DNA from: a virus
DNA: 64,000 nucleotides
Reading direction: 5' to 3' (one strand)
IMG/VR virus record: IMGVR_UViG_3300024955_000001
Span: 4,579-68,578 of that record
A model generated the notes under the pieces. That model was not told the origin of the DNA and ran no database searches. It saw only the letters and a program-made list of their open reading frames with translations. Below are positions 3,295 to 46,397 of this stretch, in pieces; position 1 is the first letter of the stretch; the number at the start of each line of letters is the position of its first letter. The translations under genes were made by a program, and so were the position numbers.

Positions 3295-3302
3295 TGGACA
3301 AA

Positions 3303-6300: not shown

Positions 6301-9300
6301 TACGCTTGAATGATGTCGTTGTCCGTCAGGCGCAGACTTTGGAAGCCTGGCACGTGCTGGCGCAGGAAGTTGCGAATGGCGGAAATCGCCCGTTGCACAA
6401 AGGGCAGTTGGGGGGTCTTCTCGGCCATTTCTGCCAGAACTTCCTCAGCCGCTTCGCGCACGCTCAGGCTGTTCACCCCGCGCAGGCCGTATTCCCGCAT
6501 CTTGGCGGCAACCTCGGCTTTGCGCATGGTAGCAAGCTGGTTCAGCACCTGATCCAGGTCGCGGCCGAACTTGCCGCGCAGCCCGTGGTGGCCCAGCACC
6601 TCGTGGTACAGCACGCGCGCCGCGTCGTTGGGCGTGTTCAGGCGAGAGGCCATCAGGTAAGCCTTGCCACGGTAGTAGAAGCCCTCTGGCGCTCCGCGCG
6701 CACCGCCGCTGCGCTGGCGCAGGTCAGCATTTCGTGCAGCTTCGGGGATTCGCTGGTCCTGCATGTCGAAGGCCACCACCACCTCGGGCGCATTCGGGCC
6801 CCATGCGGCGCGGATGGCGTCCACTGTGCCGGACACTGAGGCGACAGCTTGGCGACGCGCGGCGTCGGAGTACACCGATGGTTGATCCATGGCCGCGAGG
6901 TAGGAGGCCATATCAAAATCGTCAGCCTGCGCAACACCAGCGGGAGCCTCGCGTCGGAATGCAGGCGCATCGCCCGCAGTTCCATCGCCCGCCTCGGATT
7001 CCTCGGGGGTCGTCGGGGCGGCACTTTGGGCCTTGCCTTCCAGCAGGCCCACCAGCTCACGCAGGCGCTCACGCTTGGCGGTCAGCTCCCCAGCCTTGGG
7101 GAACGTCTGGTTCAGCTGTTGGCGCAGCGCGGGCAGTTCTGCCTTCGCCCGCGCAAGCTGGCGCTCCAGGTAGTCAGTGCTGCTGTTGGCCAGGCGGCCA
7201 ATGTCATCGAACAGGTCTGTGACCAGGTTGCGCACGTTGGCCGGCACAACGGACTGGTTGACCGCGAACGAATTCAATCCCCGGCTGGTCACGGTGGCGC
7301 CGTCAGCGTCCACCAGCGACACCGAGGCGTCAATCTGGCCGCCACCCTTGCCGGTTTCGCGGGCCTGCGCGTCCAGCACCAGGTCATAGCCCAGCATGCT
7401 GCCCACGGTCGCGGTGCGCGAGTCGCCGGGCTGAATGCCCTTGGTCAGCTCGTTGAACTTGGCGGCCAGCTCACGCGCAGCAACGGTGTGCTGGGCGATC
7501 AGGCGCCCGTCAATGGTCACATCGAACAAGGATGAGTCACCAAGGGCAGCGCCAATCGCGGTGTCGATGCCGTCCTTGTTGGTCAGGCGCGCACCATCCA
7601 CAGAGATAGAGTACCGGGCCGTAGGCTTGCCGCCCTGCTGCTGCTCGATGGCCTCGTTCACGGCGGTCATCGCATCGCGCAGGTTGTCGTACTCCTTGCC
7701 CTCGATGGTCACACGGCGCTCTGCCTTGCGGGCGTCGGCCGCCTCCATGGCGGCGTTGGCCTTTTCCTTCTTGGCGCGCTCGTCGGCAATGCGGCCGGGA
7801 TTGCGCTCGATGGCGCGCTCCGCGCTCTCCACGGCATCCTCGATACCGAACATGCGGCGGCGGAATGCACGCTCCTGCAGCTCCAGCGTGGTGATCTCGG
7901 ATTCCGTCTTGACGCGCTCCAGCAGCAGGGGGTTGCCGGATGCCAGGGCCGCCATTTCGGCCATGCCCACGGCTTCCTCGTCATCGAACTCCATGGAAAA
8001 CGCGCCGTCGTACTTGCGAATGCCGTTGATGGTGCGCAGCTTGGTCGCGTTCAAGTCCCACATCTTGGCGTCCACCGTGCGCTCGGTGGCGTAGGCCAGG
8101 ATTTCCACCTCAAAGTCCGCGCGGAACATCGGGTTGGGCTTTTCAGCCGTTGGGGGCGTGCTGAACAGGTTACCTTGTCGGATCACCCGGCCCTCGCGCT
8201 GCTCGATGTCGCTGGGCTTCCAGGTCACGTCAACGTGGTGCAGAGCCACGGCACGCTGCTGCACGTTGGTACCTGCCCCCATGCGCGGGGTGGAGCCAAT
8301 CAGGACACGCACCTTGCCGCCGTTCACGCTGTCAAAGAGCGCGGCTTTCTGCTCATCGTTGTTGGCCTCCTGCACGAAGCGGATCTCGTTGGCCGGGATG
8401 CCAGTGGCGATCAGGTTGTCCTTGATCTGCTGGTAGGCGCTCCAGGGCGAGGTCTGCGCCTGGCGCAGCTCTGCAATCTCCCGGGGGTCGTAGCGGTCCA
8501 GGGCTTCCTGGGCTTCGTCAAAAGCCTCCTGGTCATCAGCGCGCAGCGCGGCGTCGCGCTTGGCCACCAAGTCGTCATAGGCCTTGATGATGGCGTCATC
8601 GCCCTTGGACTTCGGCACGGAACGGTCGAGGAACACCAGCTGCGTGCCCTGGTCGGCATCCCACTTGTCGTAGATGCGCTTGATGTTCTCGCTCACTACC
8701 TGCAGCTTCCCGCCTTCCTCGGTGCTGGTGCTGCGAGGGTCAACGGCGCGGATGTCCAGGGACAGCTTGCGCGCCCGGTCCATCAGGCGCAGGCGCTCGG
8801 CGTTGCGCTCATAGGGGTCTTCGATGCCGTCCAGGCCATCGAAGCCTTCCATCACATCTTTGAGGCCCTGCTCCTGGGCGGGGGTGGGCTTGATCGCCAC
8901 CAGGTTGCGGTCTTTGCCCCCTGCCACCTTCGGCACTGGGAACTCGCGGCCTGGATTGTCCTCGGCGTAGAAGCGCTTGATGTCATCCAGGCTCACCGCA
9001 TCGGTGACTTGGTAATACAAGTCCATCAGCGAACGCATGTTCGACCAGGTGCGGCCCAAGCGCGTGACCTGCTTGAGGCGGCCCGATTCGGTAGGCTCAA
9101 ACGCTGGCGTTGCCTCCACGAACTGCGCGCGGAAGGCATCGAAGTGGGACAGGCCCATGTCATCCAGCGAGTCGGCTGCCAGGTAGCGCAGCATCGTGAA
9201 CATTTCCACGGCGCTGTTGCTGATGGGCGTGCCCGTCAGGAAGGTGACGCTGCCCGTAGGCTGCTCGCGCAGCACGCGCACCTTGTTGTAAAGGTCGTTG

Positions 9301-12300
9301 GCCTTGCGCGATCCGGTCTTGTCGCCCATGCCACGCACACCCGTCAGGTTGGACGAGTAGTAGAGGTTCTTGAACTCGTGGGCTTCGTCCACGGTCAGGT
9401 CATCCACGCCCAGCTGCTCAAAGGTCAGCAGGCGGTCGCGCACGCCCTCTGCCAGGCGATCCATGCGGGCCTGAATCTTCTCGGCCAGGCGCTCGGCCTC
9501 CTTCACATTGAAGGGCTTGCGGCGCCCGTTGTCGGTACCGTCCTCGCGGGCCTGCTCCCAGGCGTCCTCGATGGCTGCCTGTGCCTGAGCCATTTCCAGC
9601 TCCAGGTAGCGGCTTTCCGTCTCCGGCGCAATGCCGATGAAGCCGAAGGACGAATGGGGCACGATCACGATGTCCCAGTCGCCCGTGGCGATCTTGCCGA
9701 ACAGGCGGCGGCGGCGCTTGGCCTCGAAATCCTTCTTGCCAGCGGCCAGCACCTTGGCGCCAGGGTACAGGCGGTACACATCGGCCGCCCACTGCTCCAC
9801 CAGGTGGTTGGGCACAGCCACCATGGGCTTGCGGGACAGGCCCATGCGGCGGCGCTCCATCGCGCGGGCGATGGCCGTGAAGGTCTTGCCGGCCCCCACG
9901 GCATGATCGACCAGCATGAAGCGCTCGTAGATGCCGCGCCAGATGGCATTCATTTGGTGGCGGCGCATCTTGAGGATGGCGTCCGGCACCTTACCGGGCA
10001 GCTGCAGGTGCTGGCCGTTGAACTGGCGCACCACGCGGGTGTTGAACTTCTCGTTGAACACGTCCACCAGGCGCTGGCGGCGCTCGCCGTTCTTGAAAAC
10101 CCAGTCGCCAAACTCGGCCTCGATCTCGCGCGCCTTGAGCCCGGCCAGGGCGGTGCGCTCCTTGTCGATGTAGGTGTTGCCGTCCGCGTCGCGGGCGGTG
10201 ACGGTCACGGCCTTGCTGTTCAGGATGCGGGTGATGATGTAGTCAGCTGGCGCACCCTCGCTGCTCCAGTTGGACATGCTGGTGCGCTCGGCGCCATCCA
10301 CGCTGACACTGAAACTGTTGGTCAGGGCCGAAAAGCTCACCCGCGCCTTGCCCCCCACCAGATGGCGCACGAAATCTGCATAGATCTCAGGGGGCACCCA
10401 GGTGGCGCCCATGGTCACGGCCACGTTCTCTGCGGTCCAGTCTGCGGGAATGATCTTTTCCAACGCCTCGGCGTTCTTGGTCATGCCAGCGGCGCGCGCT
10501 GCGTTCAGCTTGCGCTTGACCATGCCCGACAGGTAGGCGTCGGCCGTTTCCCACTGCCCCGTTTCAGGGTCTTTGAACACCAGCGGGTCGGCACCCTGCT
10601 GCAGCTGCTCGCCGGCCTGCTCTGGGCTGACGCCCAGCAGGTTGGCGATGCGCTCCATGTCCACGCGCCCAGATTCCGCCAGGGTGATTGCCAGGGCATC
10701 CGATGGAGTGGCGGCCTTGGTCGCTGGCTCATATTTGGGCACCACGCGCTCACGCAGGATAGGCGCTGGCGTGGCCTTCTCCTTCTGCGCCTCCAGCCCG
10801 GAGCGCGCGGCCTGCTCTGCAGTGCGCTCGGGTTGATAGTCCACCTCCAGCGCGGCTATCAGGCCGCCGTCCGGCATGGTCATCGCCAACTTCATGTTGG
10901 TGGAGCGCCCCACCGGTCCGTTGGCCTTCACGAATGCCTCGTAGGCAGCGGCCAGGCTCTTGCGGTTGCCCTCCATCACGGCGGGCACGGCGTCGGCGGT
11001 TTCCAGCACCAGCTGGCGTTTGAGCAGATCGCGCAGGCCGACCAGCCCGTTCAGGCGCTTCATGCCCAGCTTGCCAAGGCGCAGCTTTTCGGGCACGTCC
11101 TCGGGCTTGGCGTATACCTTGCGCTCGTACAGGTTCTTGCGCGTGGCCTCGCCCTTGGCGTTGGTCGCCTTGACGTTCTTGCCCTGCTCGTCCAGCACGG
11201 GCTCCAGAGAGTACCACTGGCCCTCCGCGTTCTGGCTCAGGGACTCGTGCCATGGGCTGTTCTCGTCAACATCCTGGTAGGCAAACTCGAAATCGCCCTC
11301 GGGTGTTTCGCGCTCAATCACGCGCTGCAGCTTCCCGTCAGGGGTAGCCTTGATGTGGCCGGCTTCCTCGTTGGCCACGGCAATGCGCAGCGCATCGCTC
11401 ATGGACTTATGGCGGGATGCAGTGGCGTCCAGCACATCCTGCTGGAAGTTCTGGATGCCCTCGGGCAGGCGCTGCACTGCCTCGCTCAGTAGCTTGCCCA
11501 GCTCGGCCGGGTTGTCCAGGCGCACGGTAATGTCGGCACCATGCTGCATGGAGCCGGAGCGCTCCATGACGCCCAGGACGTTCGCCGGGTTCTCCGCGAA
11601 ATAGGCGTTCACGTTCATGGGCTCGCCGCCCAGCGGATCGGGCACCTTGACCGTTTCGACCCAGGACGGCACCAGCGCGGCGGCGGCGGCGTCCGCGTCC
11701 TTCTTGTTGGCCTTGAGCTTGTTGTATTCCGTGATCGCGGCTTGCATCGCAGCCTGCTCGCCCGCATCCATTTTCTGGAAGATCAGGATGTCAGTCACCA
11801 CCTCCGTTCGGGCGTTCTCCTTGAATGCCGTATCTGGCAGGCGGATTGCGGCCACCAGGCGCGCCTGTGCGGCCAGCGCCAAGCGGCTGCTCTTGTCCTG
11901 CGCGTCCATCAGGAAGCGCGATACCACCATGGCCTGAATGCCGCCAGGGCGCAGCGCATCCATCCCGGCCCGGAAAAACTGGTTGTGGATCGACACGCCC
12001 TGCAGCTCGGGCTTGAACTGGAAGCGCAGAGACTCGCTGCCGAACGGCGGGTTGCCGATGTTCAGCATGAAAGCGTTGTCGGCCACCGGCACCTTCTGGA
12101 AGCCGGAATGCAGGACCGTCGCCTGCGGATACAGGGCCTGCCCGATGCGCGCGGTCAGGCTGTCGTATTCGACACCCACGAACCGATTGGGCATGTCCTT
12201 TGGCGCCAGGCCCAGGAAGTTGCCGGAGCCCATCGAGGACTCCAGCACGAGTCCTCCACGGTAGCCCAGGCGGCGCACCATGTCCCACATGGCCGACACC

Positions 12301-15300
12301 ACCGTCTGCGAGGTGTAGTGCGCGTTGCGGGTCGAACGACGCGCGGCGGTGTATTCCTCTTTGGTCAGCAGCTCGCGCAGTTCCTCACCGCGCGCCGTCC
12401 ACTTGTCCTTGAACTGGCCGGATGCGGGGTCGGGGAAAGCGTTGGCCAGGCCGCCCCAGCCCACATAGCGGGCCAGCATTGCCTGTTCTTCCGGTGTGGC
12501 GCGACGATTGGCCGCCTCGATGGCCTTGAGGGCGCGGATCGCGGCCAGGTTGTCATTGAACTTCTGAACCTCGCCACCCTTGCCCAGGCCCACCTCGTCG
12601 GTGATCTGGAAGTCGGCGGCGGGGATGTTAGGGGCGCTGGCCTCGCCCCCAGGGACAGCTACGCGCCCATCTGCTTGCGGTACTGGCTCTCCAGTTGCGC
12701 GAGTTCCTTGCGCTCCCACGGCTCCAGCTCGGCCTCGGGCTCGGGTTTTAGGAGCACGTACTGGCTCAGGGCCACTTCCTCCGCTTCGTGCTGGCGAAAG
12801 CCCTGCTCCATCAGCGACAGCACTTCCTGCTGCGCCTGCTTGCCCGCTGTCTGCAGCGCCTGCTCCAGCTCCCCGCTCGCCTTCAGCGCGGCTACCTTCT
12901 TGGGCAGCCACTGCGTCCAGTGCTTGCGGGCTCTCGCTTCGTACAGTTGTGCGCTCATCGCTGGGGTTCTCCTGCTGTGCATTATCGGCCTCGGCCTGGT
13001 CGGCAGCAACAACCGCCTCGTGTTGTTCAATCTCGGCCTTCGTCTCCACGTCGATGACCGCGCGCTTGGTATCCGCGCCCGTCTTGCCCCCCGCCATTGC
13101 GATGTAGGCGCCCTGCAGGTGATCCAGCGTCAGCGCATCGGCCGCGTCGTCGCCCAGGTTTGCGCGGATCTGATCCAAGGCGAACTTGGCCGAATCCTTG
13201 AACTTGTGGTATCCCAGGCGGAATGCGGCATCCAGCACGCGTGTGAGCACTGGCAGCAGCTTTTGCTCCTGCTCGGGCACGATGTTCATGCGGGTGCCCT
13301 TGCCAAGGATGTCGCCCAGGTCGGCCAGGGCGTTCATCAGATCGGCCTGCGCGCGCACCTGATCGGCGCTGGGCTTCTTGGCAGTAGCAGGGGCCTTATT
13401 TGCTACTGAATTGGTAGCTACTGGAGCTTCTTTGGTGCTGGTACCGGCCTGATTCTCATCAGAAACATTGATGGCTTTTTCTGCGGCTGGCGCTGGGCTG
13501 GCAGCAGGCTTGGCCGCCTCGCTCTCGGCCGCCGTCATGAACTCGGGTTTCAGCTCGCCGCGCGACACCTGCATGCCCTGGCGCGTGGGGCGCAGGGACA
13601 CGGTTTCCTCGATGCGCACGCCGCCCTGGGCGTACCAGCGCACGCCGTTCTTGTCCTGGCGGATCATCACGCCGTCAGCGCGGCGGCCGACGATGGTGTT
13701 TCCGTCCTTGTCCGCTTCTGAATTAATAGCTGCTGGAGCAATAACGGCGCCGGTATTGGGCTGTTCCTTCTCTTTGTCCTGGCGGGTTACGGCGGCGGGG
13801 GCTGCGGTGGGCACAGCTTCGCCCGTAGGTGCCGTGTTGGCGGGGAGAAAAGAACGTTCGCCATTCGCCTTCTCGGCGGTCACAACGCCATCGCGCTCCA
13901 TGCGATCCATCAGCGCATTGACTTCGCCAAAGCCGATGCCCAGCGCAGCCTGAATAGCAGGGCGATTCACAGCGCCGGCGCTGCGCACCAACTCCACAGC
14001 CTTTGTGTAGGTCGCATCGTCCTTAGCGCCGGGCTCCATCGCAACCGCCAGCTTGCGCTGCACATCGCGGTTCAGGTCAGCCCACGCTGCGCGGTGGACG
14101 TTCTTGCGCACGATGGGCTTGAGATCCGCGCGCTGGGCCAGGGCCTGGCGTTCGGCCGTGGGCATGCGCGTCCAAGCATCGCCAGTGCTGGCTACGCGCT
14201 GAGCAGGGCCTTCTGCTTGCGGCGCAGCTTGCGCGCTTGGCGCTGGCGCCGTTTGCGCTCCAGGGTTCGCAGTCGGGGCGCCATCGGTCAGGCCTGCAGC
14301 GGCTGCTTGCTGCGCGCCATTCGCGCCTGGGCGTCCTTGAGCATCTGGTGCTCCACGTGCGACTGCTGGCGCTGCTCCGACTTGCGACGGTTGCGCGCTA
14401 CCTTGCTGGGCTTGGGCGGCTTGAGGGCCATTGCGGTTTCCTTCTGTGGTTGCGGGAATGGTCAGATCAGCCGGCACTGGACCAGCGTCTTCGGTGAGGG
14501 AGGCAAAAGCGGCATCGGCGCGCTCTGCGCCGGGCACGCTGGCGCGCTGCTCTGCATCCAGCTCGGCCTGCAGCTCCTGCTGCTCACGCAGCGCACGGCG
14601 GCGGCCCAGCTCCTGGGCCAGTTGCATGCGGACCTCGCGCGACTGAGCGCCGCGGAAGGTGTTGGACAACTGGGCATCGCTCCAGCTCTCCATGGGCGAG
14701 CCCGGCGAAATTTCGCCAGTTTCCTGGTTTACGCCTTGCTGCGTGAGCGCTGGCTGCTCTTGTTTTTGATTGCCTTGGGCAGTTTTTTTGCCTTGCTTTT
14801 GCGCTACCTCGGCAGCCTGGGCCAGCGCAGCGGCCTGCTGCACTTGGTCTGAGGCGCCGGTATCGACAGCCAGCGCGGCACTGGCCGACAGTGGGCCGGC
14901 AGCAGGGTCCAAGCCCATGGCCACGGAGCGCGGCACGGTCGCACCGGTGGACTGGTAAATCTCATCGTCAGGGCTTTGCACGGCGCGCGAGGCATCCATG
15001 GCAGCCTGGCGCTGCTCGGCGGCCTGGGCCTGCTGCTGCGCCAGCGCTGCCGCGCCATCGGGAGGCGCGGTCTGGGGCACGTTGGGATCGCCTTGCTCCT
15101 GCTGCTGCAGCGCCGCCAGTTGGGCGGCAAATGCCTGCTGGATACGCTCCATGCCGAGGTTGGGCGGCGCGGCGCCGGCGTCAGTGGGTGCGGCACCAGG
15201 TTGCTCGGAAGGCGACGCACCTGGTTCCGCTTTCGGCTGCTTGAAGCCGTGATAGCCGGAAGCTGCGCCACCCATGGCGCCGCCCGACAGCACGCCCATG

Positions 15301-16220
15301 ACCGCTGCGGAATCCACATCCGTCAGCCAGTCCTTGCCAAGCGCCACGTTCTGGAAGATTTGCTCGGCCACGGACTGCGGCAGCTCTTCCAGGAAACCCT
15401 CGGAGATCGCGCCCTCAATCACGCGGCGCGGAATGCTCTTGGCAGCCGCTTGCTGCACCAGAGGATTGACGGCGGCGGTAGCGGCATCGTCAGCGTTCTG
15501 CTTCGCCATGCCCTTGGTGCCCTGGGCCAGCATGGTTTCGGCGTCACCGATACCCAACTTGTTGGCCACGCGGCCGCCCAGCACGCCGAAGCCCGCCGTG
15601 GCCACGCCGGTTGCCGCTGCGAGCGCGGCCTGGGTGGGGGTCAGCAGCCCATCGGGAGTTTCCTGGCGGATCTGCTCGGCTGCGGAACCAGCTGCGGTGA
15701 TGCCTTCGCCGGCCGCGCCCGCCAATGCAGCACCAGCGGCGCCCATCTGGCCCAGCTTTGTCGCGGCCATGAGTCCTCGCGCAGCGACGCCCCCAGCGCC
15801 CATGCTGGGCAACGACTCACCAACGGCCGTCGCAATGAGGCTGGGGTTCTGAACGGCTGTAACGGCCTTGTCCACGATGCCATTGGCATCCTGAAACTTG
15901 CGTTGCGCCTCCTTGGTAGCGTCGGAGTGCCAGTCGTTGGCGATTTCCTTGGCCTGCTTGGGGCGAAAGCCCACAGAGCCACCCTCGTTCTCCAGGAACT
16001 TGCCCACCTCGCCGCCCGTGGGAATGTCGGCAATACCAACCAGGGCCTCGGGCACGCCAATGGCGCCCTTGACAGCTGTGGCAGCAACGTCCTTGATGGT
16101 GCCGCTCAGCGTACGCTTCGGCGAATCCGCTGCACCATCGAACTGGTCAAAGTAGTTCTTTCCTTTGCCACCCGGGCCGGCAGTTGAGGGGTCGAATTGA
16201 TCAAAGAAGTTGGAGCTCAT
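3315..16220 (-). CDS. giant polyvalent virion protein (DarB-like: N6-adenine methyltransferase + SNF2/DEAH helicase + zincin-like motif + PLxRFG membrane module)
   Basis: Single 4301-codon ORF. Motifs read directly: RYVGWGG (aa 1250), NPPFG (aa 1390), GAGKT (aa 2109), DEAH (aa 2278), QREGRVIRQGN (aa 2674), LYHEVLGHHG (aa 3204), APLSRFG (aa 3632). N- and C-terminal regions are Gly/Ala-rich and hydrophobic. Confidence 0.85.
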   Translation of the reverse strand: MSSNFFDQFDPSTAGPGGKGKNYFDQFDGAADSPKRTLSGTIKDVAATAVKGAIGVPEALVGIADIPTGGEVGKFLENEGGSVGFRPKQAKEIANDWHSDATKEAQRKFQDANGIVDKAVTAVQNPSLIATAVGESLPSMGAGGVAARGLMAATKLGQMGAAGAALAGAAGEGITAAGSAAEQIRQETPDGLLTPTQAALAAATGVATAGFGVLGGRVANKLGIGDAETMLAQGTKGMAKQNADDAATAAVNPLVQQAAAKSIPRRVIEGAISEGFLEELPQSVAEQIFQNVALGKDWLTDVDSAAVMGVLSGGAMGGAASGYHGFKQPKAEPGASPSEQPGAAPTDAGAAPPNLGMERIQQAFAAQLAALQQQEQGDPNVPQTAPPDGAAALAQQQAQAAEQRQAAMDASRAVQSPDDEIYQSTGATVPRSVAMGLDPAAGPLSASAALAVDTGASDQVQQAAALAQAAEVAQKQGKKTAQGNQKQEQPALTQQGVNQETGEISPGSPMESWSDAQLSNTFRGAQSREVRMQLAQELGRRRALREQQELQAELDAEQRASVPGAERADAAFASLTEDAGPVPADLTIPATTEGNRNGPQAAQAQQGSAQPSQVGAAPAVARGAPDAQGRPGANGAQQAAAAGLTDGAPTANPGAQTAPAPSAQAAPQAEGPAQRVASTGDAWTRMPTAERQALAQRADLKPIVRKNVHRAAWADLNRDVQRKLAVAMEPGAKDDATYTKAVELVRSAGAVNRPAIQAALGIGFGEVNALMDRMERDGVVTAEKANGERSFLPANTAPTGEAVPTAAPAAVTRQDKEKEQPNTGAVIAPAAINSEADKDGNTIVGRRADGVMIRQDKNGVRWYAQGGVRIEETVSLRPTRQGMQVSRGELKPEFMTAAESEAAKPAASPAPAAEKAINVSDENQAGTSTKEAPVATNSVANKAPATAKKPSADQVRAQADLMNALADLGDILGKGTRMNIVPEQEQKLLPVLTRVLDAAFRLGYHKFKDSAKFALDQIRANLGDDAADALTLDHLQGAYIAMAGGKTGADTKRAVIDVETKAEIEQHEAVVAADQAEADNAQQENPSDERTTVRSESPQALDAVAAQEGSRAEGERGAGAGAADSGQAGAAGSAVADGAGLSPARSGGSGPEPVRAPKTRARGRAGAVGAQGTRATGEPVPQADGRVAVPGGEASAPNIPAADFQITDEVGLGKGGEVQKFNDNLAAIRALKAIEAANRRATPEEQAMLARYVGWGGLANAFPDPASGQFKDKWTARGEELRELLTKEEYTAARRSTRNAHYTSQTVVSAMWDMVRRLGYRGGLVLESSMGSGNFLGLAPKDMPNRFVGVEYDSLTARIGQALYPQATVLHSGFQKVPVADNAFMLNIGNPPFGSESLRFQFKPELQGVSIHNQFFRAGMDALRPGGIQAMVVSRFLMDAQDKSSRLALAAQARLVAAIRLPDTAFKENARTEVVTDILIFQKMDAGEQAAMQAAITEYNKLKANKKDADAAAAALVPSWVETVKVPDPLGGEPMNVNAYFAENPANVLGVMERSGSMQHGADITVRLDNPAELGKLLSEAVQRLPEGIQNFQQDVLDATASRHKSMSDALRIAVANEEAGHIKATPDGKLQRVIERETPEGDFEFAYQDVDENSPWHESLSQNAEGQWYSLEPVLDEQGKNVKATNAKGEATRKNLYERKVYAKPEDVPEKLRLGKLGMKRLNGLVGLRDLLKRQLVLETADAVPAVMEGNRKSLAAAYEAFVKANGPVGRSTNMKLAMTMPDGGLIAALEVDYQPERTAEQAARSGLEAQKEKATPAPILRERVVPKYEPATKAATPSDALAITLAESGRVDMERIANLLGVSPEQAGEQLQQGADPLVFKDPETGQWETADAYLSGMVKRKLNAARAAGMTKNAEALEKIIPADWTAENVAVTMGATWVPPEIYADFVRHLVGGKARVSFSALTNSFSVSVDGAERTSMSNWSSEGAPADYIITRILNSKAVTVTARDADGNTYIDKERTALAGLKAREIEAEFGDWVFKNGERRQRLVDVFNEKFNTRVVRQFNGQHLQLPGKVPDAILKMRRHQMNAIWRGIYERFMLVDHAVGAGKTFTAIARAMERRRMGLSRKPMVAVPNHLVEQWAADVYRLYPGAKVLAAGKKDFEAKRRRRLFGKIATGDWDIVIVPHSSFGFIGIAPETESRYLELEMAQAQAAIEDAWEQAREDGTDNGRRKPFNVKEAERLAEKIQARMDRLAEGVRDRLLTFEQLGVDDLTVDEAHEFKNLYYSSNLTGVRGMGDKTGSRKANDLYNKVRVLREQPTGSVTFLTGTPISNSAVEMFTMLRYLAADSLDDMGLSHFDAFRAQFVEATPAFEPTESGRLKQVTRLGRTWSNMRSLMDLYYQVTDAVSLDDIKRFYAEDNPGREFPVPKVAGGKDRNLVAIKPTPAQEQGLKDVMEGFDGLDGIEDPYERNAERLRLMDRARKLSLDIRAVDPRSTSTEEGGKLQVVSENIKRIYDKWDADQGTQLVFLDRSVPKSKGDDAIIKAYDDLVAKRDAALRADDQEAFDEAQEALDRYDPREIAELRQAQTSPWSAYQQIKDNLIATGIPANEIRFVQEANNDEQKAALFDSVNGGKVRVLIGSTPRMGAGTNVQQRAVALHHVDVTWKPSDIEQREGRVIRQGNLFSTPPTAEKPNPMFRADFEVEILAYATERTVDAKMWDLNATKLRTINGIRKYDGAFSMEFDDEEAVGMAEMAALASGNPLLLERVKTESEITTLELQERAFRRRMFGIEDAVESAERAIERNPGRIADERAKKEKANAAMEAADARKAERRVTIEGKEYDNLRDAMTAVNEAIEQQQGGKPTARYSISVDGARLTNKDGIDTAIGAALGDSSLFDVTIDGRLIAQHTVAARELAAKFNELTKGIQPGDSRTATVGSMLGYDLVLDAQARETGKGGGQIDASVSLVDADGATVTSRGLNSFAVNQSVVPANVRNLVTDLFDDIGRLANSSTDYLERQLARAKAELPALRQQLNQTFPKAGELTAKRERLRELVGLLEGKAQSAAPTTPEESEAGDGTAGDAPAFRREAPAGVAQADDFDMASYLAAMDQPSVYSDAARRQAVASVSGTVDAIRAAWGPNAPEVVVAFDMQDQRIPEAARNADLRQRSGGARGAPEGFYYRGKAYLMASRLNTPNDAARVLYHEVLGHHGLRGKFGRDLDQVLNQLATMRKAEVAAKMREYGLRGVNSLSVREAAEEVLAEMAEKTPQLPFVQRAISAIRNFLRQHVPGFQSLRLTDNDIIQAYILPARGWVVRGGPGGGPRGGQPVMSRASDAGSADPDIRFSRSSTADLKDSALAQIHQTLTHPGKVSLWDKTVGTMRNLAERSPVFKPVYEAAQRFIDDVSMLGNDAADRAPRLLPRVETLADLKKKPITAADNQAVAKPLFEGTLLWARDVDGTPVTTEALNAKYRNTTPDEKAQILLRTGKIQEQMLKAWRGLPVDQYNTIINNKFDSTILKPGVIWSEKELKDLFSLNAQQVSLYQEARAAIDRSLDMTARADMLRAMGAGYADLREAVLAQATVEDAMVLITDTLQAEARESPDQADRILSLNNAVVKSYERARALMEAGYAPLSRFGRYTVDVVGKDGTREYFGMFESMYESNKMKAAMEKEFPGATVTQGTMSDEAFKLFQGITPESLEHFGQMLGLSGEGTDPKDKAFQAYLQLAKNNHSALKRLIHRKGISGYSEDVGRVLASFVYSNARLAAGGLNAGTLETAIEGIPKEQGELRDVAMGLRSYIQDPQEEGQAVRGMLFAQYLGGSVASAMVNMTQPFQITMPWLSQFGGMRSAASHLAAAVRDMTRRSGYEPDLAKALQTAEAEGIVSPQEIHQLMAQARGAGSLRTGDGTKLGDARAAAANNWERVKVAWGQPFALAEQFNRRSTFIAAYRIAKEQGMADPAKFAERAVQETQFVYSKANKPKWARGTIGGTLFTFKTYSVSYLELMHRMWTQGGPEGKRAVGWAVAMLLLMGGAGGLPFMEDAEDLIDGAGQLMGYNISTKHWRKQALRDVVGKELADFMEQGVSGLPGAPIDVSGRLGMGNLIPGTGLLLSKQNRERDLLEVAGPAGDLVARGFTGARKLLTGDVAGAALEVSPAAVRNLAKGIDMGTSGIYKDAKGYKVIDTTLDEAIAKAIGFQPKPVAEVQEANSFMQRSKSFYIQTSNDIKAQWAQAVFEKDDDALQRVRDRLAAWNRNNPDQPIVVKIPDVMKRVREMGKDRTARIADTAPKALRQQMRDMARENG
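3318..6300 (-). other. C-terminal PLxRFG-type module with transmembrane segments
   Basis: APLSRFG at nt 5307-5324. Hydrophobic helices (e.g. AVGWAVAMLLLMGGAGGLPF) lie near the C-terminus, typical of ejected internal virion proteins. Confidence 0.5.
8150..9970 (-). other. SF2 (SNF2/DEAH) helicase module of giant protein
   Basis: Walker A GAGKT (nt 9882-9896), DEAH (nt 9378-9389), TGTPISNS, and motif VI QREGRVIRQGN (top nt 8201). Confidence 0.8.
11540..12650 (-). other. N6-adenine DNA methyltransferase module of giant protein
   Basis: ADFQITDEVGLGKGG...RYVGWGGLANAFPD...LESSMGSGNFLG (motif I-like)...NIGNPPFG (motif IV, nt 12039-12053). Confidence 0.8.
12659..12958 (-). CDS. embedded 99-codon ORF in +1 frame of the giant gene (hypothetical small protein)
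   Basis: ATG 12958 with AGGAG 10 nt upstream. MSAQLYEARARKHWTQWLPKKVAALKASGELEQ...QYRKQMGA has K/E/Q/W-rich, protein-like composition. My hand count gives GC3 ~86% in this frame versus ~37% for the giant frame over the same 300 nt. Confidence 0.45.
   Translation of the reverse strand: MSAQLYEARARKHWTQWLPKKVAALKASGELEQALQTAGKQAQQEVLSLMEQGFRQHEAEEVALSQYVLLKPEPEAELEPWERKELAQLESQYRKQMGA
13866..14009 (-). other. winged-helix segment of giant protein (FtsK-gamma-like)
   Basis: aa ~738-785, YTKAVELVRSAGAVNRPAIQAALGIGFGEVNALMDRMERDGVVT, resembles the FtsK gamma / wHTH DNA-binding fold. By-eye resemblance only. Confidence 0.3.
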
Positions 16221-16256
16221 CCACCCACTGTCCAGCAGCGTGAGGAATGGGCAAAA

Positions 16257-16268
16257 CCCTATGCCGGG
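16257..16268 (-). repeat. late-region motif copy (minus: CCCGGCATAGGG)
   Basis: 36 nt upstream of the giant-gene ATG. Confidence 0.6.
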
Positions 16269-16349
16269 CGATGAACGATTGGAGCTTTCGAATCTGCAGC
16301 GCCACTCTGATTGCGTACCCTGCTACATTCCTCACAGGAGGGAGAATCC

Positions 16350-17153
16350 ATGGAAGCCACTCAGGACAATCAGCCATCAACGCCCCTGCGCTTTGCCCGC
16401 CACATCGTTGGAATGATGATCTTGGCGCTGGCTTCACCCTACATCTGGTACAGCTCAGATAGCGTTGCAACCTGGGCCTCAACGTGGGTCACACCGCTGC
16501 TGATCGCGGGCGTAGCATTTGGGCTGTACCTACTGTTCTTCACCAAGCGTGCCAAGGAAGCATGGCCCGGTCGATTCTTTATGCTGGCCTGGGTGATGCT
16601 GGCCCTTGCGGTGGCCGGACCCTATCTAGAGAAGTTCAACCGGGAGCGAGCACAGTCAGCCGCATCGAATTCGCTATCAACACCGCCACAAACAGCAGTT
16701 GCACAGCCTCCCCTGAATCACTTTGACCAGTTCGACACAGCGAGTGCATCATCAAGGCAAGCATATGTGTCTCGTGTCAATGACCTGCGCCTCGCTGGCA
16801 AAAATGGATCCATACCAATATTGGATATACAAGCGCCTTCGGACGCTGACAAAGCTCTCAAGCCATGGTCGCCCCAGGATGTTGCTGCCGTGGAAAACAC
16901 TCAAACGTGGTGGGTGGACGGCGAGGCGGTTTGGATGCACATCATGAATCGCTCCATCGCAAAGATCGACGCACTGCAATTTACATACGCGGCAGGAAAT
17001 TGCGGTGCAGCACCGCCCTCTGATCAGGCTTCCTACTTCGTGCGTCTGCAGCGCTCAGTAGAGCCTGGAGCTGAGGCTCTAGTGCGTTTCGCTGCAGTTA
17101 GTGAGTTCAAACCTGCGAATGGATGTCTGACTATTGTGAAGGTGCTCGGCTAG
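16350..17153 (+). CDS. three-TM membrane protein, moron (candidate superinfection-exclusion factor)
   Basis: ATG 16350 preceded by GGAGGGAG; 267 aa. Three hydrophobic helices plus a ~150-aa soluble domain. It is the only plus-strand gene inside the late operon and has visibly lower GC. Contains NHFDQFD. Confidence 0.7.
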   Translation: MEATQDNQPSTPLRFARHIVGMMILALASPYIWYSSDSVATWASTWVTPLLIAGVAFGLYLLFFTKRAKEAWPGRFFMLAWVMLALAVAGPYLEKFNRERAQSAASNSLSTPPQTAVAQPPLNHFDQFDTASASSRQAYVSRVNDLRLAGKNGSIPILDIQAPSDADKALKPWSPQDVAAVENTQTWWVDGEAVWMHIMNRSIAKIDALQFTYAAGNCGAAPPSDQASYFVRLQRSVEPGAEALVRFAAVSEFKPANGCLTIVKVLG

Positions 17154-19105
17154 CCAAGCACCTTCTTGGCGGCCCCAGGGCCGAACTTTGCGTCAAATTC
17201 TGCAGCCTTCTTCGGGTCTGATTTCAGAGCAGAAATGTGGCCCGCCTGCGGCGCAGGCCATTGCCCCCCCTGCCCCGCATCCACACGCTCAACCGCACCC
17301 GTCTGGGTGTTGTAGCGCATCACACTACCCTCGGTAGTGGACCCATCAGCATTCTTCGTGGTCGGCGTCACCTGGAGCTTCCATGGCGATTCCGTCTTCT
17401 TGCCGGACAGGTCGCGGATCTGCTGTGCGATAGCGGCCTTTTCCTCGGGAGTCTTCGCAGCGTCGTAGCGCTCGCTCAGTTTCTCTTGGCGGTAACCCTG
17501 GCGAATGTCAAAGCCACGTGCCTCCGCCTCGGTTGCGGCGCGCTTTTCCTCGACGGCCGCTCGGCGGTTGTCGATCTGAAAACCGCGTGCCGAACGCTGG
17601 TCAGCACCGGACTGCTGCATGCCTTCTCGCTGGAGCGCAGAGTTCTCGCGCATGGCGGCCAGGTCCATGCCGGGCTGGGCCAGCTGCAGCGCCTGGTCAT
17701 TTTTGAGCGCTGCTTGAAAGGCCAGGTTGTCAGGGCTGATCGCTGCGGCACGTGCGCCAATGCGCGACGGATCGTTGGTGATCGAGCTGGCGGACACTTG
17801 CGCGCTGCGAAGCGCGTTGCGTGCAGCCCAGTCATTGGTGGAGTTGCGCACCACAGGGGCCGTCACCTGGGCAGTAGGAGCCGGTGAGGCCAAGCCAGGC
17901 GCGAAGCCAACCGAACGGGGCGCAGAGAGCGCTTCCGCTGCCGCGTTGTTCTGCGCAGTAATTGGGCCGGTACTGAGAGGCTGTGCGGCGGGCGTGGCGG
18001 TGGGCTCCCCTACCGGTGCTGTGGCCGCAGTAGGAGGCTGCACCTGTGCAGGAGAGGCCGAAGGCATGGGCGGGGAAGCCGGCTTGACAGTAGCGGCGGC
18101 GGCTGGCGCCTGTGCCATGGACGTGCCTGCAGCCCCAAAGAACTGCTTGCCGGCATCTACGACCGTAGGCGCAACAGCACGGAGCGCGCCGCCCACCACG
18201 TCATCAACAACAGCCGGCGCGTAGGCCAGTGCAGCGCGTGCGGTTTCCCCAGCGGCTGCGCCATACCGCCCTTGCTTGGCAAGATCACCGATGGCCTTGC
18301 CGGACTCGTTGAACACGGCGCGCGTGCCAGGCATGAAGCCAGCGGCGGCTGGTGCGGGGGTGGGTGTAATCTGGCTGGTGGTAGCCGCCTGCGGTGGGCT
18401 GGGAGGCATCGCTGGGCGAGTGGCAGCCGACTCCTGCGCGCCGCGCACGTACATGGCCGTCTGGTTGGCCATGCGCTGCTTTTCTTCATCCTGCACCAGC
18501 CCGCCATTGGCAAAGAACTGGCGCGGCTCTTCCGGCTGGGCTTGGGGCGCAAAGCCGCGCACCGGCTTGTGGGTTGCATCACGCATCACAGTCAGCACAG
18601 ACTCACCCAGCGCCTGCACCTGTTCTGGTGGCAGCTCGAATTCCCCATTGCTCAGGCGCACCGGCACCGATTCCCCCTGCTCTTCCATCGCGCTATCGCC
18701 CACCTCGCCAAGCTCTTCCAGAGCCTCCGGGCCAATGGCCTGCGTGCTATCGGCGGGCATGATGAAGGTACCAGGGCGCTTTGCGGTTTCAATGGAATCA
18801 CTGGTGCCAGTGCCGGGTCCACGGATCAGGCCCCCCGCCTTGAACCCGCGCGGCTTGACCGTACCACCATCTTTCAGACCTGCAGCCTTCTCGCGGCGCG
18901 CCATTGCGCCCATGCCCATGTAGTCGCTCACGGCCGGAGCGGGCGCCGGTGCTGGAGCGGCCTGCTGCTTCTGGGCAGCTTCCTGCGCGGCTTGGGCGCG
19001 GTAAGCGGCAACGCGCGCATTGCGCTCTTCGTCCATGCCAAAGGCACGCTTGAGGCCTTGTACCAAGCCGCCGTCTGCAAATTTTTGGGGTTGAAAGCCT
19101 CGCAT
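17150..19105 (-). CDS. internal virion / DNA-ejection protein candidate
   Basis: Start set to ATG 19105 (MRGFQPQKF) with AAGGAG 6 nt upstream (ORF-track start is TTG 19159). 651 aa, A/P/Q-rich, with repeated GG(L/T)V motifs and GPGTGTSDS. Confidence 0.55.
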   Translation of the reverse strand: MRGFQPQKFADGGLVQGLKRAFGMDEERNARVAAYRAQAAQEAAQKQQAAPAPAPAPAVSDYMGMGAMARREKAAGLKDGGTVKPRGFKAGGLIRGPGTGTSDSIETAKRPGTFIMPADSTQAIGPEALEELGEVGDSAMEEQGESVPVRLSNGEFELPPEQVQALGESVLTVMRDATHKPVRGFAPQAQPEEPRQFFANGGLVQDEEKQRMANQTAMYVRGAQESAATRPAMPPSPPQAATTSQITPTPAPAAAGFMPGTRAVFNESGKAIGDLAKQGRYGAAAGETARAALAYAPAVVDDVVGGALRAVAPTVVDAGKQFFGAAGTSMAQAPAAAATVKPASPPMPSASPAQVQPPTAATAPVGEPTATPAAQPLSTGPITAQNNAAAEALSAPRSVGFAPGLASPAPTAQVTAPVVRNSTNDWAARNALRSAQVSASSITNDPSRIGARAAAISPDNLAFQAALKNDQALQLAQPGMDLAAMRENSALQREGMQQSGADQRSARGFQIDNRRAAVEEKRAATEAEARGFDIRQGYRQEKLSERYDAAKTPEEKAAIAQQIRDLSGKKTESPWKLQVTPTTKNADGSTTEGSVMRYNTQTGAVERVDAGQGGQWPAPQAGHISALKSDPKKAAEFDAKFGPGAAKKVLG

Positions 19106-19161
19106 GGGGACTCCTTTATTCATCTGGCCGGATTGTTGACACCAGCCAGGGGCCCGCAAAG

Positions 19162-38880: not shown

Positions 38881-39597
38881 TCAAACGCTCGCACGCGGCG
38901 CTTGGGAGAACAGATCAGCATGGCGCTCCACAAACCGGCGCAGGAACTCTAGGCCCCGCCCGGTCACGCGCGCCACGCGGCTGAGCTGGCGCCCGCGCGT
39001 GTTCGTGTCGAAGGTGTGCAGCGATTCCTTGAAGTAGCCTTGGGCCACGTAGCGCGCGGCCGGGGCGTTGTCGGGCAGGATCACGCCCTTCTGGCGCAAA
39101 GCCTTCTCCAGCTTGCGCACGGGCACGCCGATGGTTTTGGCCGCGTCACGGACCAGCACCGTGCCGTCCGAGTTCAGCATGGCGTCGGCGTACACCACCT
39201 TCGGGCGGGCTGCCTCCAGCGCGGCCTGCTGCAGTTCAATCTGCTCCTGCTGCTCGGCAGCCAGGCGCAGGGCCTGGGCGAAGGTCTTGGGGACGCCCTG
39301 CCCATCCTCCAGCTCCTGCCAGCGAGCAATGATGCGGCTGCGCAGCTGCAGGCTGTAGCCGGACACCAGCACCAGCGTTTCGTGCTTGGGCAGCGCCAGG
39401 ATGGGGTAAAGCTGTCCGTTCTGGATGTCACGGTGGGTCTGCTCAAATTTGAGCACCCCCCGGGGGCCGTGAAGTTCCACCAGCATGGCGCGCGCATCGC
39501 GCAGCACGTTGCGGTGCTCCTTGCCCGTGAGCGCGGCGATCTCCCGCGTGCTCATCGTCAGTGGCTGGCCTGCGGCCATGGTCATCAGCGTGTTCAT
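38881..39597 (-). CDS. Rha-family regulator / antirepressor (Rha N-domain + KilAC-like C-domain)
   Basis: MSTREIAALTGKEHRNVLRDARAMLVEL matches the phage pRha motif. The C-terminal ADAMLNSDGTVLVRDAAKTIGV... is ANT/KilAC-like. Confidence 0.65.
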   Translation of the reverse strand: MNTLMTMAAGQPLTMSTREIAALTGKEHRNVLRDARAMLVELHGPRGVLKFEQTHRDIQNGQLYPILALPKHETLVLVSGYSLQLRSRIIARWQELEDGQGVPKTFAQALRLAAEQQEQIELQQAALEAARPKVVYADAMLNSDGTVLVRDAAKTIGVPVRKLEKALRQKGVILPDNAPAARYVAQGYFKESLHTFDTNTRGRQLSRVARVTGRGLEFLRRFVERHADLFSQAPRASV

Positions 39598-45638: not shown

Positions 45639-46397
45639 ATGAAATTCGGAGAGCGGCTGGATGCAGCCTTAAAACACTTGGGTTGGGGCCCTTCTGACCT
45701 TGCGGGCCGCACCTCCGTTGCTATGCCGACGATCAGCGCGATAACTACGCGCGGCAGTGACAGGACAAACTACAAGGAGGATCTGATTCGCGGCTTCCCT
45801 GCGGACAAGATCAGCCATGAATGGCTGCGCTCAGAGTTGGGCAGCATGATCCCCGCTGCCGCGCTGGATTCACAAGGAGTGGCCACCAACATCCTTGCTC
45901 CAGCACCAGCACCTCACGAGGCTCCGTCTGGAGCACCGGGCGCCCCTCCTGATTTGGTCATCGCCGAGTACGATACGGGTGGCGGCATGGACACCACCGG
46001 GCGCCTGATGCTGGACGACCAGCCAGGCATCATCAAGAGTTGGCGCGTGTCTCACGATTGGCTGCGCCTGAATGTTCCATCCCATACTGGCGTTCGCAAC
46101 CTCTGCATCGTTACTGGCTTTGGGCCATCCATGCGGCCCATGTTCAACCCCGGCGACCCGCTGCTGGTGGACATTGGCGTGAAGACCGTGACCCACGAGG
46201 GCGTATATTTCTTCCGCGTCGGTGACGAAGGGTTTATCAAAATGATCCAGCGTGTGCCAGACCCTCATGGGGACGGCGTGATGCTGAATATCATTTCCAA
46301 GAACCCGGACTACCCCCCTTACCCTATGTCACCCAAGAATCCGCATTTCGAGATTTTGGGCAAGGTACTGACGGTGTGGCGCAGCGAACAGTATTGA
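45639..46397 (+). CDS. cI: CI-like repressor (XRE HTH + S24 LexA-type autopeptidase)
   Basis: 252 aa. N-terminal HTH. C-terminal TGFGPSMRPMFNPGDPLLVD...FIKMIQR carries the Ser/Lys dyad pattern of S24 peptidases. Confidence 0.85.
   Translation: MKFGERLDAALKHLGWGPSDLAGRTSVAMPTISAITTRGSDRTNYKEDLIRGFPADKISHEWLRSELGSMIPAAALDSQGVATNILAPAPAPHEAPSGAPGAPPDLVIAEYDTGGGMDTTGRLMLDDQPGIIKSWRVSHDWLRLNVPSHTGVRNLCIVTGFGPSMRPMFNPGDPLLVDIGVKTVTHEGVYFFRVGDEGFIKMIQRVPDPHGDGVMLNIISKNPDYPPYPMSPKNPHFEILGKVLTVWRSEQY

Follow-up and report, generated by a model that had tools for sequence, protein, structure and literature searches.

How a temperate phage might stop rival phages from delivering their contents into its host can be approached from the sequences of its membrane and virion proteins. 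Here, we show by six-frame translation, homology searches, structure prediction and permutation tests that a small, predicted inner-membrane protein of a temperate phage carries in its tail the same short peptide that opens the giant, presumably injected virion protein of that phage. Because this pairing recurs with at least eight different peptides in related phages, it probably represents a new, decoy-based way for prophages to block infection by rival phages, although exclusion itself is inferred from sequence alone.

A motif shared by two divergent genes

The DNA analysed, referred to here as the window, is a single stretch of 64 kb. FDQFD occurs exactly three times in its six-frame translation, all within 600 nt, and the looser pattern [FYW]D.[FYW]D adds only one further hit. 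Two copies lie in the first 28 residues of the 4301-aa giant protein (3315..16220, minus strand), at nt 16191-16205 (residues 6-10) and nt 16137-16151 (residues 24-28), and the third lies in the divergently encoded 267-aa membrane protein (16350..17153, plus strand), at nt 16722-16736 (residues 125-129). In context, the giant copies read NFFDQFD (16191..16211, residues 4-10), which overlaps a second vocabulary item, QFDPSTA, and NYFDQFD (16137..16157, residues 22-28), and the membrane copy reads NHFDQFD (16716..16736, residues 123-129), conserved as NFFDQFD and NYFDQFD in two homologues (P0002 and P0003, respectively). The 16-mer ACTTTGACCAGTTCGA occurs twice, at 16138-16153 on the minus strand and 16720-16735 on the plus strand, and 0 of 100 shuffles gave two matches. 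The observation of the first-pass annotation, a motif shared twice by the giant N-terminus and once by the membrane protein with an identical 16-nt DNA core, is thus confirmed, and its translations match ours. However, once the amino-acid identity is given, the DNA identity is not remarkable: from codon usage we estimate about 0.065 per copy, or about 0.12 for either giant copy. In seven homologous loci (L004, L006, L017, L018, L020, L022 and L028) the copies differ at several synonymous positions while the peptide is kept, indicating that selection acts on the peptide. The inference of the annotation that the 16-nt identity points to duplication is therefore not supported.

The giant protein fits the polyvalent class, multidomain proteins with a methylase/helicase-like core that are packaged and injected with the DNA (Iyer, Burroughs, Anand, de Souza & Aravind 2017; PMC5512222). 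It has a C-terminal PLxRFG/tail-700 domain (NF032893, E=1.9e-238, 793 bits) and weak hits to FtsK_gamma and to SNF2/ResIII/Helicase_C, the latter below the Pfam cut-offs, and its homologues carry precomputed LPD1, LPD3, LPD5, LPD39 and MuF_C domains. Its N-terminal domain is 52-56% identical to the giant proteins of phages F116, H66 and 8P. Virion association is indicated only indirectly, as H66 gp60 is annotated as verified by mass spectrometry as part of the virion and 8P_023 as a structural protein, and delivery into the cell is inferred from class membership. The leader (16113..16220, minus strand, residues 1-36) is predicted to be disordered, with an AF2 pLDDT of about 50 for residues 1-30, and contains the internal repeat NFFDQFDPSTAGP / NYFDQFDGAADSP at a spacing of 18 residues, the score of which is reached by 0 of 200 shuffles. 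It is followed by a conserved, predicted all-alpha domain (15240..16109, minus strand, residues 38-327) with the signature GVPEAxVGxxDIPTGGxVGKFLENEGG and Gly/Ala-rich helices, modelled with a mean pLDDT of 80.7 and without a PDB fold match.

The membrane gene is preceded by a divergent intergenic region (16221..16349) in which the Shine-Dalgarno sequence AGGAGGGAG ends 5 nt upstream of the ATG at 16350. Its product is predicted to consist of a conserved three-helix membrane anchor (16404..16628; TM1 about residues 19-34, TM2 46-64, TM3 75-93, with AF2 helices at 11-28, 39-64 and 75-104, and a cytoplasmic loop TKRAKEAWPGR), a disordered linker (16629..16745; pLDDT below 50 for residues 100-131) that holds the motif, and an accessory C-terminal helix plus beta-sandwich domain ("domain A", 16746..17150; pLDDT 80-92) with two invariant cysteines, C218 and C259. 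Domain A has no significant PDB fold match and is absent from most family members. Mean K+R counts across 13 homologues are 1.9 for the N-terminus and 3.4 for loop 2, against 0.5 for loop 1 and 1.5 for the C-terminal flank, predicting an N-in/C-out topology that places the motif in the periplasm. The protein has no hit in Pfam above cut-off, PHROGs, NCBIfam or PADLOC, and no tblastn hit in 50,697 phage records.

The gene has a moron-like position and composition. It lies on the strand opposite the late operon, its GC (55%) and GC3 (57%) are lower than those of the giant gene (65% and 81%), and it is absent from F116, H66 and 8P, where the upstream gene gpU directly abuts the giant gene. The same site holds ShosTA and HicAB in relatives, indicating a hotspot that includes defence genes, and the window encodes an S24 repressor and an antirepressor, as expected for a temperate phage. 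However, no sigma-70 consensus was found in the intergenic region, no sigma-70-like promoter or terminator was found around the gene, and its 3' end overlaps the gpU stop by 4 nt.

Co-variation across related phages

The window is one case of a family-wide pattern. Giant polyvalent proteins of F116/Bcep22-like phages begin with a disordered leader carrying a short motif twice, about 18 residues apart; 35 of 45 leaders carry a significant tandem motif and at least 14 motif types exist. The 3-TM protein combines its conserved anchor with a variable, predicted periplasmic tail built from those same motifs. In 14 of 17 loci that hold both genes the tail contains the motif type of its own giant, involving eight types: NxFDQFD (window, L004, L006, L017), NPFxDPxYG (L010), FSYEEA (L018, L047, L049), IDxILxxAP (L020), LKPFxGxLD (L022, L045), WWKxGxTP (L028), FDPxTAxPV (L038) and DWEKGA (L040). 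Of the other three, L008 and L023 carry a foreign type and L011 carries none. Permuting the giant/membrane pairings gave an observed score of 434 against 251+-31, with 0 of 100000 permutations reaching it, and strict patterns derived from giants alone hit 54 of 85 membrane tails, against 0.04 expected from shuffles. Some tails carry up to four types, and in all five multi-type loci for which the giant is known the phage's own type is the C-terminal-most. L006 and L010 are 91-92% identical in DNA, yet differ in two separate patches, the giant leader and the membrane tail together with the gpU 3' end. In both proteins the motif cores are conserved while the flanks vary, as expected for a short linear motif in a disordered segment. 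Conservation in homologues of both proteins, which the annotation had set as a condition for its idea, is thus observed. In contrast, cultured F116-like phages have tandem leaders (KPWEEF x2), but neither the H66 nor the 8P sequence scanned, about three-quarters of each genome, holds any other copy of the motif.

gpU (17150..19159, minus strand) is an ejection-protein-like gene of 651-669 aa just upstream of the giant gene in the late operon, with a likely true start at MRGFQP (19105). It matches phrog_11341 (E=5.5e-63), contains a tape-measure-like stretch and aligns with F116 p58, 8P_022 and others. Its C-terminal ~30 residues (17153..17242, minus strand, ..HISALKSDPKKAAEFDAKFGPGAAKKVLG) co-vary with motif type: normalised tail similarity is 0.62 for same-type pairs against 0.15 for different-type pairs, whereas the rest of gpU shows no such difference (0.25 vs 0.24; 0.17 vs 0.17). 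Permutation gave 0/20000, and 5/20000 in the restricted set, and further loci are concordant. This makes the gpU tail the best candidate binding partner of the motif. However, the co-variation could be hitch-hiking, because the gpU 3' end abuts the 3' end of the membrane gene, and in L023 the gpU tail follows the membrane motif (type 9) and not that of the giant (type 6).

Candidate mechanism and alternatives

What could a membrane-tethered copy of the leader motif do? The annotation proposed that FDQFD is a docking motif of the ejected giant protein and that the membrane protein displays it as a decoy giving superinfection exclusion. This interpretation is partly supported: the motif behaviour, the predicted topology, the moron-like character and the hotspot fit it, and the multi-type arrays fit it especially well, whereas the partners it suggested, a host envelope component or the portal, are not indicated by any of our data. 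The explanation we favour, somewhat more likely than not, is superinfection exclusion by motif mimicry. In this view, the leader of an infecting related phage must dock through its motif to a type-specific partner, possibly the gpU tail, while the trans-envelope DNA-delivery conduit is built, and the prophage copy would compete for that partner or mis-anchor it and so abort genome and protein delivery. Multi-type arrays and loci carrying only a foreign type are best explained if the protein is aimed at other phages. The motif sharing, its co-variation over at least eight types, the peptide-level selection, the disorder, the predicted topology, the composition, the hotspot context and the gpU-tail co-variation come from our analysis, while expression from the prophage, binding and its partner, and the exclusion phenotype are inferred. 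The high conservation of the 3-TM anchor suggests that it does more than anchor, which the simple decoy model does not explain.

We consider it unlikely, but possible, that the motifs instead bind a host periplasmic or inner-membrane protein needed for insertion or translocation of the giant, as the annotation suggested and as in colicin TolB/TonB boxes or tape-measure proteins that use PtsG or ManYZ; the outcome would still be superinfection exclusion, with the membrane copies saturating or sequestering a cellular factor. Tail and leader are both expected to meet in the periplasm, and LKPFxGxLD occurs in proteins labelled Acinetobacter, Variovorax and Pseudacidovorax, which would fit a conserved host target. 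However, at least 14 types exist among closely related phages of related hosts, and L006 and L010 differ in type despite being 92% identical, so many different host partners would be needed; a stoichiometric decoy would have to titrate an abundant host protein, and it is the phage-encoded gpU tail that co-varies. Similarly doubtful is a function for the phage itself, in which the membrane protein would work with its own giant during the lytic cycle, using the shared motif to bind the same phage partner, in roles such as membrane-associated assembly or packaging, capsid targeting, control of lysis timing, or protection of the infected cell and its debris from wasteful ejection by progeny. The prevalence and C-terminal position of the own type and the conserved synteny with gpU and the giant gene would fit this, and N-terminal capsid-targeting peptides occur in T4 internal proteins. 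Nonetheless, the tail is predicted to be periplasmic whereas assembly is cytoplasmic, the gene is dispensable in that F116, H66 and 8P lack it despite the same gpU-giant arrangement, foreign-only and multi-type tails make no sense for a purely self-directed role, and its low GC and opposite strand argue against it.

A DNA-level origin is very unlikely and already largely refuted. The two 16-mers form an inverted repeat 566 bp apart, both in frame, which could suggest a recombination or inversion site swapping the N-termini of the two genes in frame, recent duplication or gene conversion, with the peptide identity as a by-product. However, the repeats are not conserved at the DNA level in homologous loci, in several loci the genes are 4-5 kb apart, and no protein with the hybrid junction (3-TM N-terminus fused to the giant domain) appeared among 71 giant N-terminal homologues or about 200 3-TM homologues. 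Coincidence, with acidic/aromatic low-complexity peptides recurring by chance in disordered segments, is refuted as well: although the motifs are short (5-10 residues) and lie in biased, disordered regions, shuffled and reversed tails give about 0 hits against the 54 observed, and the confinement of FDQFD to 600 nt and the pairing permutation exclude a compositional artefact.

Relation to known exclusion systems

The closest parallel is P22 SieA (PMC10883804), a small prophage-encoded inner-membrane protein of a temperate podophage that blocks DNA delivery by interfering with the conduit built from ejection proteins, with specificity mapping to the C-terminal regions of gp16 and gp20; our candidate target is likewise the C-terminal module of an ejection-like protein. 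With the functional class of superinfection-exclusion inner-membrane proteins (SieA, Imm, HK97 gp15) the gene shares its place in a temperate phage as an accessory gene outside the essential modules and, in silico, a location in the cytoplasmic membrane. No sequence relationship to a described Sie family was detected in the family searches above. SieA is not reported to copy a peptide of an ejected protein, whereas here specificity would be written as interchangeable short motifs, sometimes in arrays, on a conserved anchor. Ltp of Streptococcus phage TP-J34 and gp15 of HK97 are prophage-expressed, envelope-anchored proteins that stop genome entry by engaging a protein ejected from the incoming virion. 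They bind that protein, or block its host partner, through folded domains and are not known to mimic its terminal peptide, and their anchors (a lipoprotein or a single TM helix) and hosts differ. Colicins carry short, partly duplicated docking motifs in a disordered N-terminal leader that work in the periplasm, including tandem OmpF-binding sites and TolB/TonB boxes. Their partners are host Tol/Ton proteins, colicin immunity is not known to work by displaying the same motifs, and we found no sequence similarity. For polyvalent proteins, the passages of Iyer et al. (PMC5512222) retrieved by a term search mention neither a tandem N-terminal short motif nor a paired membrane protein, and the leader motif vocabulary and its mirror in a membrane protein are new observations here.

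In conclusion, the 3-TM protein may act as a prophage accessory protein that presents, on a flexible and predicted periplasmic tail, the short address motif of the giant virion protein. If this reading is correct, tails carrying several motif types would exclude several ejection types of phage.

The giant protein and the divergently encoded membrane protein

The window is a temperate phage of 64% GC, with an S24-type CI-like repressor at 45639..46397 and an antirepressor at 38881..39597, and its terminase is about 75% identical in DNA to that of Burkholderia phage BcepMigl. A C-5 cytosine DNA methylase (PF00145, E=4e-24) lies in the early/accessory region, at 60414-62171 (+). ORF 3315..16220(-) encodes a 4301-aa protein that begins MSSNFFDQFDPSTAGPGGKGKNYFDQFDGAAD, and the divergent ORF 16350..17153(+) encodes a 267-aa protein that contains PPLNHFDQFDTASA. 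The first-pass annotation had reported that the peptide FDQFD is shared by these two proteins, twice in the giant and once in the membrane protein, together with an identical 16-nt DNA core. This observation is confirmed: FDQFD occurs exactly three times in the six-frame translation, at the stated coordinates (16191-16205 and 16137-16151 in the giant ORF, 16722-16736 in the membrane-protein ORF), and the 16-mer ACTTTGACCAGTTCGA occurs twice, whereas 0 of 100 shuffles gave two matches.

The giant protein has a C-terminal PLxRFG/tail-700 domain (NF032893, 793 bits) and sub-threshold SNF2, ResIII, Helicase_C and FtsK-gamma hits. The last of these corresponds to an FtsK-gamma-like winged-helix DNA-binding domain at approximately 14022-13852 (-), giant residues 733-790 (E=3.5e-07, just under the Pfam cut-off), and the giant of L010, one of the contigs to which homologues of the membrane protein were traced, also carries a precomputed FtsK_gamma hit. 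The first about 330 residues are 52-56% identical to the giant proteins of Pseudomonas phages F116, H66 and 8P, of which H66 gp60 is annotated as a virion protein verified by mass spectrometry. Homologues carry LPD1, LPD3, LPD5 and MuF_C domains, the hallmarks of the injected "polyvalent proteins" (PMC5512222). An AF2 model built on 35 sequences shows residues 1-35 as disordered and residues 38-327 as a confident, predicted all-alpha domain, for which a Foldseek search of the PDB returned no significant match.

The 267-aa protein matches no family in Pfam, PHROGs, NCBIfam or PADLOC, with only a sub-threshold 7TMR-DISM hit in Pfam, and tblastn against 50,697 phage records gave no hit. AF2 predicts three long helices, a disordered linker (residues 100-131, including FDQFD at 125-129), and a helix plus beta-sandwich domain (133-267, pLDDT 80-92) with two invariant cysteines. 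Although this model, like that of the giant, was good locally, Foldseek again found no significant PDB match for the C-terminal domain. In seven homologues (P0006, P0007, P0172, P0189, P0209, P0213 and P0217) an alternative C-terminal "domain B" (..YAAHPDA[DN]AIF.S..F..WL....Y..) replaces this Cys-containing domain A on the same 3-TM anchor, and most family members have no folded domain at all. Across 13 homologues the mean K+R counts are 1.9 for the N-terminus and 3.4 for loop 2, against 0.5 for loop 1 and 1.5 for the C-flank, which gives an N-in/C-out topology, so that the tail should be periplasmic. The gene has a GC content of 55% and a GC3 of 57%, against 65% and 81% for the giant, and a promoter and terminator scan of 15900-17500 returned nothing credible for it.

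Motif types shared between giant leaders and membrane tails

Is the shared peptide particular to this phage? Homologues of the membrane protein were traced to their contigs (designated L followed by a number), revealing that motif sharing is a rule while the motif itself varies. In the window, L004 (Alicycliphilus), L006 and L017 the giant leader carries N[FY]FDQ[FY]D twice and the membrane tail carries the same motif once. In L010 the leader has NPFSDPAYG and NPFSNPDYG and the tail NPFRDPNYG; in L018, L047 and L049 an FSYEDA-type motif occurs twice in the leader and F[ST]YEEA in the tail; in L020 the leader has IDNILNGAP and IDEILKDAP and the tail IDEILKDAPAYQP; and in L022 and L045 LKPFxGxLD occurs twice in the leader and LKPF[QE]GKLD in the tail. 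L028 combines WWKSGATPV and WWKAGAKEV with EWWKKGSTPLN, L038 combines AFDPKTAKPV with AFDPTTARPV and QFDPSTARPV, and L040 combines DWEKGAL and DWERGAI with DWEKGAL. The giant gene of the viral contig L038 is frameshifted right after its leader (MSNAFDPKTAKPV.., at 3200-4240 (-) of that contig), which is either an assembly error or a sign of a decaying prophage.

In all, 14 of 17 loci that hold both genes contain their own giant's motif type. L008 and L023 carry a different, recognizable type, and L011 carries none. We considered the weak pair in L008 (giant NWNDFKPLEEPP, membrane VNDILKELPP) as an own-type match but rejected it, as the membrane motif belongs to the IDxIL type. When the giant/membrane pairings were permuted using one locus per type, the observed summed best-segment score was 434, against 251+-31 for permutations, and 0 of 100000 permutations reached the observed value. 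L006 and L010 are 91-92% identical in DNA over 9 kb, and differ only in two separate patches, namely about 95 nt of the giant leader, and the membrane tail together with the 3' end of gpU, the ejection-protein-like gene just upstream of the giant.

Selection acts on the peptide and not on the DNA. Codon-by-codon comparison shows several synonymous differences between the membrane copy and the giant copies in L004, L006, L017, L018, L020, L022 and L028. From the codon usage of the window, the chance that two FDQFD-encoding stretches share the 16 nt is about 0.065 per copy, or about 0.12 for either giant copy. The first-pass annotation had inferred a duplication from this DNA identity, which is not supported.

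Among 45 complete giant leaders, 35 contain a significant internal repeat (reached by at most 1% of shuffles), with a median spacing of 18 residues (range 12-31) and the first copy starting at about residue 4. At least 14 motif types are seen: FSYEEA, SEIDDFLxDAP, DFNPxRxVP, DLFDEL, NPFxDPDYG, KPWEEF, DWEKGxF, YLSEDxMGF, LKPFxGxLD, NWxDFxP, FDPSTAK, NPFDQFD, WGxNDK and WLDxxST. F116-like phages have KPWE[ES]F twice, but we found no further PWE[ES]F copies in 8P (first 50 kb) or H66 (15.3-65.3 kb), and no equivalent decoy was found in F116-like phages.

The 3-TM family comprises about 100 clusters, mostly from Comamonadaceae, in which the anchor is conserved while the tails are hypervariable. 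Strict patterns derived only from giant leaders hit 54 of 85 tails, whereas shuffled tails gave 0.04 on average (maximum 1 in 1000 shuffles) and reversed tails gave 0; most of the misses are near-variants of known motifs. Many tails are arrays. The membrane protein P0157 has four motifs in a row, DWEKGAM, FTYEEAVG, GPWVEPPP (seen only in tails and not in the giant vocabulary) and LKPFEGKLD, while P0120 has three types, and P0175 has one type followed by three copies of another. The tail of P0192 (SETWGENDKPAPESGSADWGAGDKELASDPP) reproduces the entire tandem leader of the giant protein P0037 (SETWGENDKPATTSSAADWGAGDKEYRPDAP), linker included, followed by two further motif types, which suggests that whole leaders are captured. 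In all five multi-type loci with a known giant, the own type is the C-terminal-most motif.

The gpU tail as candidate partner, and the accessory gene hotspot

The gene just upstream of the giant in the late operon, gpU (17150..19159 (-)), matches phrog_11341, has a tape-measure-like stretch, and is homologous to F116 p58 and 8P_022. The mechanical ORF starts at TTG 19159, but homologues all begin M[RYFQ]GF.P, which places the likely true start at the ATG of MRGFQP (about 19105). This N-terminus (MRGFQPQK) carries a second short recurring motif, GF[RKQ]P, with related GF.P repeats inside gpU and up to four GF[RQ]P repeats in other loci. The motif also occurs in the giant at residue 84 (VGFRPKQAKE, part of the conserved N-domain; 15969-15980 (-)) and at residue 4194 (IGFQPKP; 3630-3641 (-)), and may be another shared docking peptide.

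The last ~30 residues of gpU fall into classes that track the motif type. Type FDQFD goes with ..AA[ED]FDAK[FY]G.. (4 loci), NPFxDPxYG with ..[AG]FFD[AE]IYG.. (L010, L050), FSYEEA with ..GQ[VI]YQT.RG.ARW[ND]G.. (L018, L047, L049, L032), LKPFxGxLD with ..GKPVYEDA.GKRFI.. (L022, L045), FDPxTA with ..G.VY.DA.GN..RWNG.. (L011, L038), DWEKG with ..VGG.QAVWDGKQWVP.. (L040, L051), and WWKKG with ..[AT]Y[TV]GPDGK.Y[KI]K. (L028, L013, and L023 by its membrane motif). Normalized tail similarity is 0.62 for same-type pairs and 0.15 for different-type pairs, whereas the 120 residues before the tail (0.25 vs 0.24) and the N-terminal 250 residues (0.17 vs 0.17) show no such difference. Label permutation gave 0/20000, and 5/20000 in a set stripped of close relatives. 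The role of the gpU tail as partner is thus supported statistically but not proven: the 3' end of gpU abuts the 3' end of the membrane gene, so that the tail is physically adjacent to the last motif of the membrane gene and hitch-hiking is possible, and in L023 the gpU tail follows the membrane motif and not the giant's. The same type-to-tail pairing holds even where the giants have different N-terminal domains (L018 vs L047, L022 vs L045).

In F116, H66 and 8P, gpU directly abuts the giant with no membrane gene between them, so the gene is dispensable. In relatives the same junction carries other accessory genes. In the Alicycliphilus denitrificans prophage L004, a complete ShosTA anti-phage system (ShosA E=2.7e-93, ShosT E=1.4e-44) lies between the membrane gene and the giant gene (L004:2382-3897), together with a DUF4325 gene and a 359-aa gene, and HicA/HicB, YafO-toxin and Arc-family repressor genes are present in other relatives (L013:2467-2930; L047:8917-9701; L049:8179-9954). 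The site therefore behaves as an accessory/defence hotspot. In L050, a Diaphorobacter nitroreducens contig, the membrane gene and a truncated gpU survive next to a capsid-gene fragment and a recombinase inside ordinary chromosomal genes, with no giant gene present, which looks like a prophage remnant that has kept the candidate exclusion gene.

Possible superinfection exclusion by motif mimicry

What could be the role of a membrane-tethered copy of the leader motif? Two proteins that carry the same disordered peptide are expected to compete for the same reader. The predicted periplasmic tethering, the accessory-gene character, the arrays of several types and the tails that carry only a foreign type argue that the membrane protein is aimed at incoming phages. 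We therefore favour superinfection exclusion by mimicry of the giant's address motif, which we consider somewhat more likely than not, with the gpU C-terminal module as the most likely reader. The motif sharing, its co-variation across at least eight motif types, and the co-variation of the gpU tail with motif type are shown by the sequence comparisons, but exclusion, binding to a reader, and all other functional claims are inferred from sequence. The interpretation in the first-pass annotation, a docking motif of the ejected giant protein displayed by the prophage as a decoy, is partly supported. The proposed mechanism parallels P22 SieA, an inner-membrane protein whose escape mutations lie in the C-terminal regions of ejection proteins gp16 and gp20 (PMC10883804). 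Possibly, a multivalent reader could bridge the tail motif and the leader motif, bringing the incoming giant's conserved N-domain to the conserved 3-TM anchor, which would explain why the anchor is so well conserved.

Alternative explanations appear less likely. The membrane protein might be a decoy for a host factor, or it might serve the phage's own lytic cycle, both of which we regard as unlikely, the latter slightly more so. A DNA-level origin of the shared sequence, by duplication, gene conversion or an inversion site, is rejected on the basis of the synonymous differences between copies in most loci, the unremarkable codon-based probability of the 16-mer in the window, and the absence of 3-TM/giant hybrid proteins among the homologues found. 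Chance is the least likely of all.

As a functional class, prophage membrane proteins that block entry are known. In contrast, our literature searches found no paper that mentions FDQFD in this context, and no description of tandem leader motifs on polyvalent proteins or of exclusion proteins that copy them, so the peptide-mimicry logic, the modular arrays and the three-way co-variation with gpU appear to be new. A more far-reaching reading, which remains tentative, is that these phages use a combinatorial "ejection-type code", in which a C-terminal module on gpU recognizes a short tandem address peptide at the N-terminus of the giant injected protein. Prophages would then keep, on a conserved 3-TM anchor, a heritable and extendable array of such address peptides, with their own type last and those of rivals before it, acting as a protein-level catalogue that excludes every phage whose code it contains. 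This would be a modular, reprogrammable exclusion system and would define compatibility groups among podophages that carry polyvalent proteins.

If the decoy reading is right, it represents a new logic for superinfection exclusion, in which specificity would be written in interchangeable 6-12-residue peptides that copy the leader of an injected protein, so that it can be read from sequence alone and should be easy to re-programme by swapping the peptide. It also gives a first functional handle on how giant polyvalent proteins, which are several thousand residues long, leave the virion, as the data point to a conserved architecture of a tandem address motif followed by a predicted all-alpha domain. 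The roughly 14 motif types would predict which prophages protect against which phages, which is relevant to phage-host range prediction in Comamonadaceae, Pseudomonas (F116-like) and Acinetobacter.
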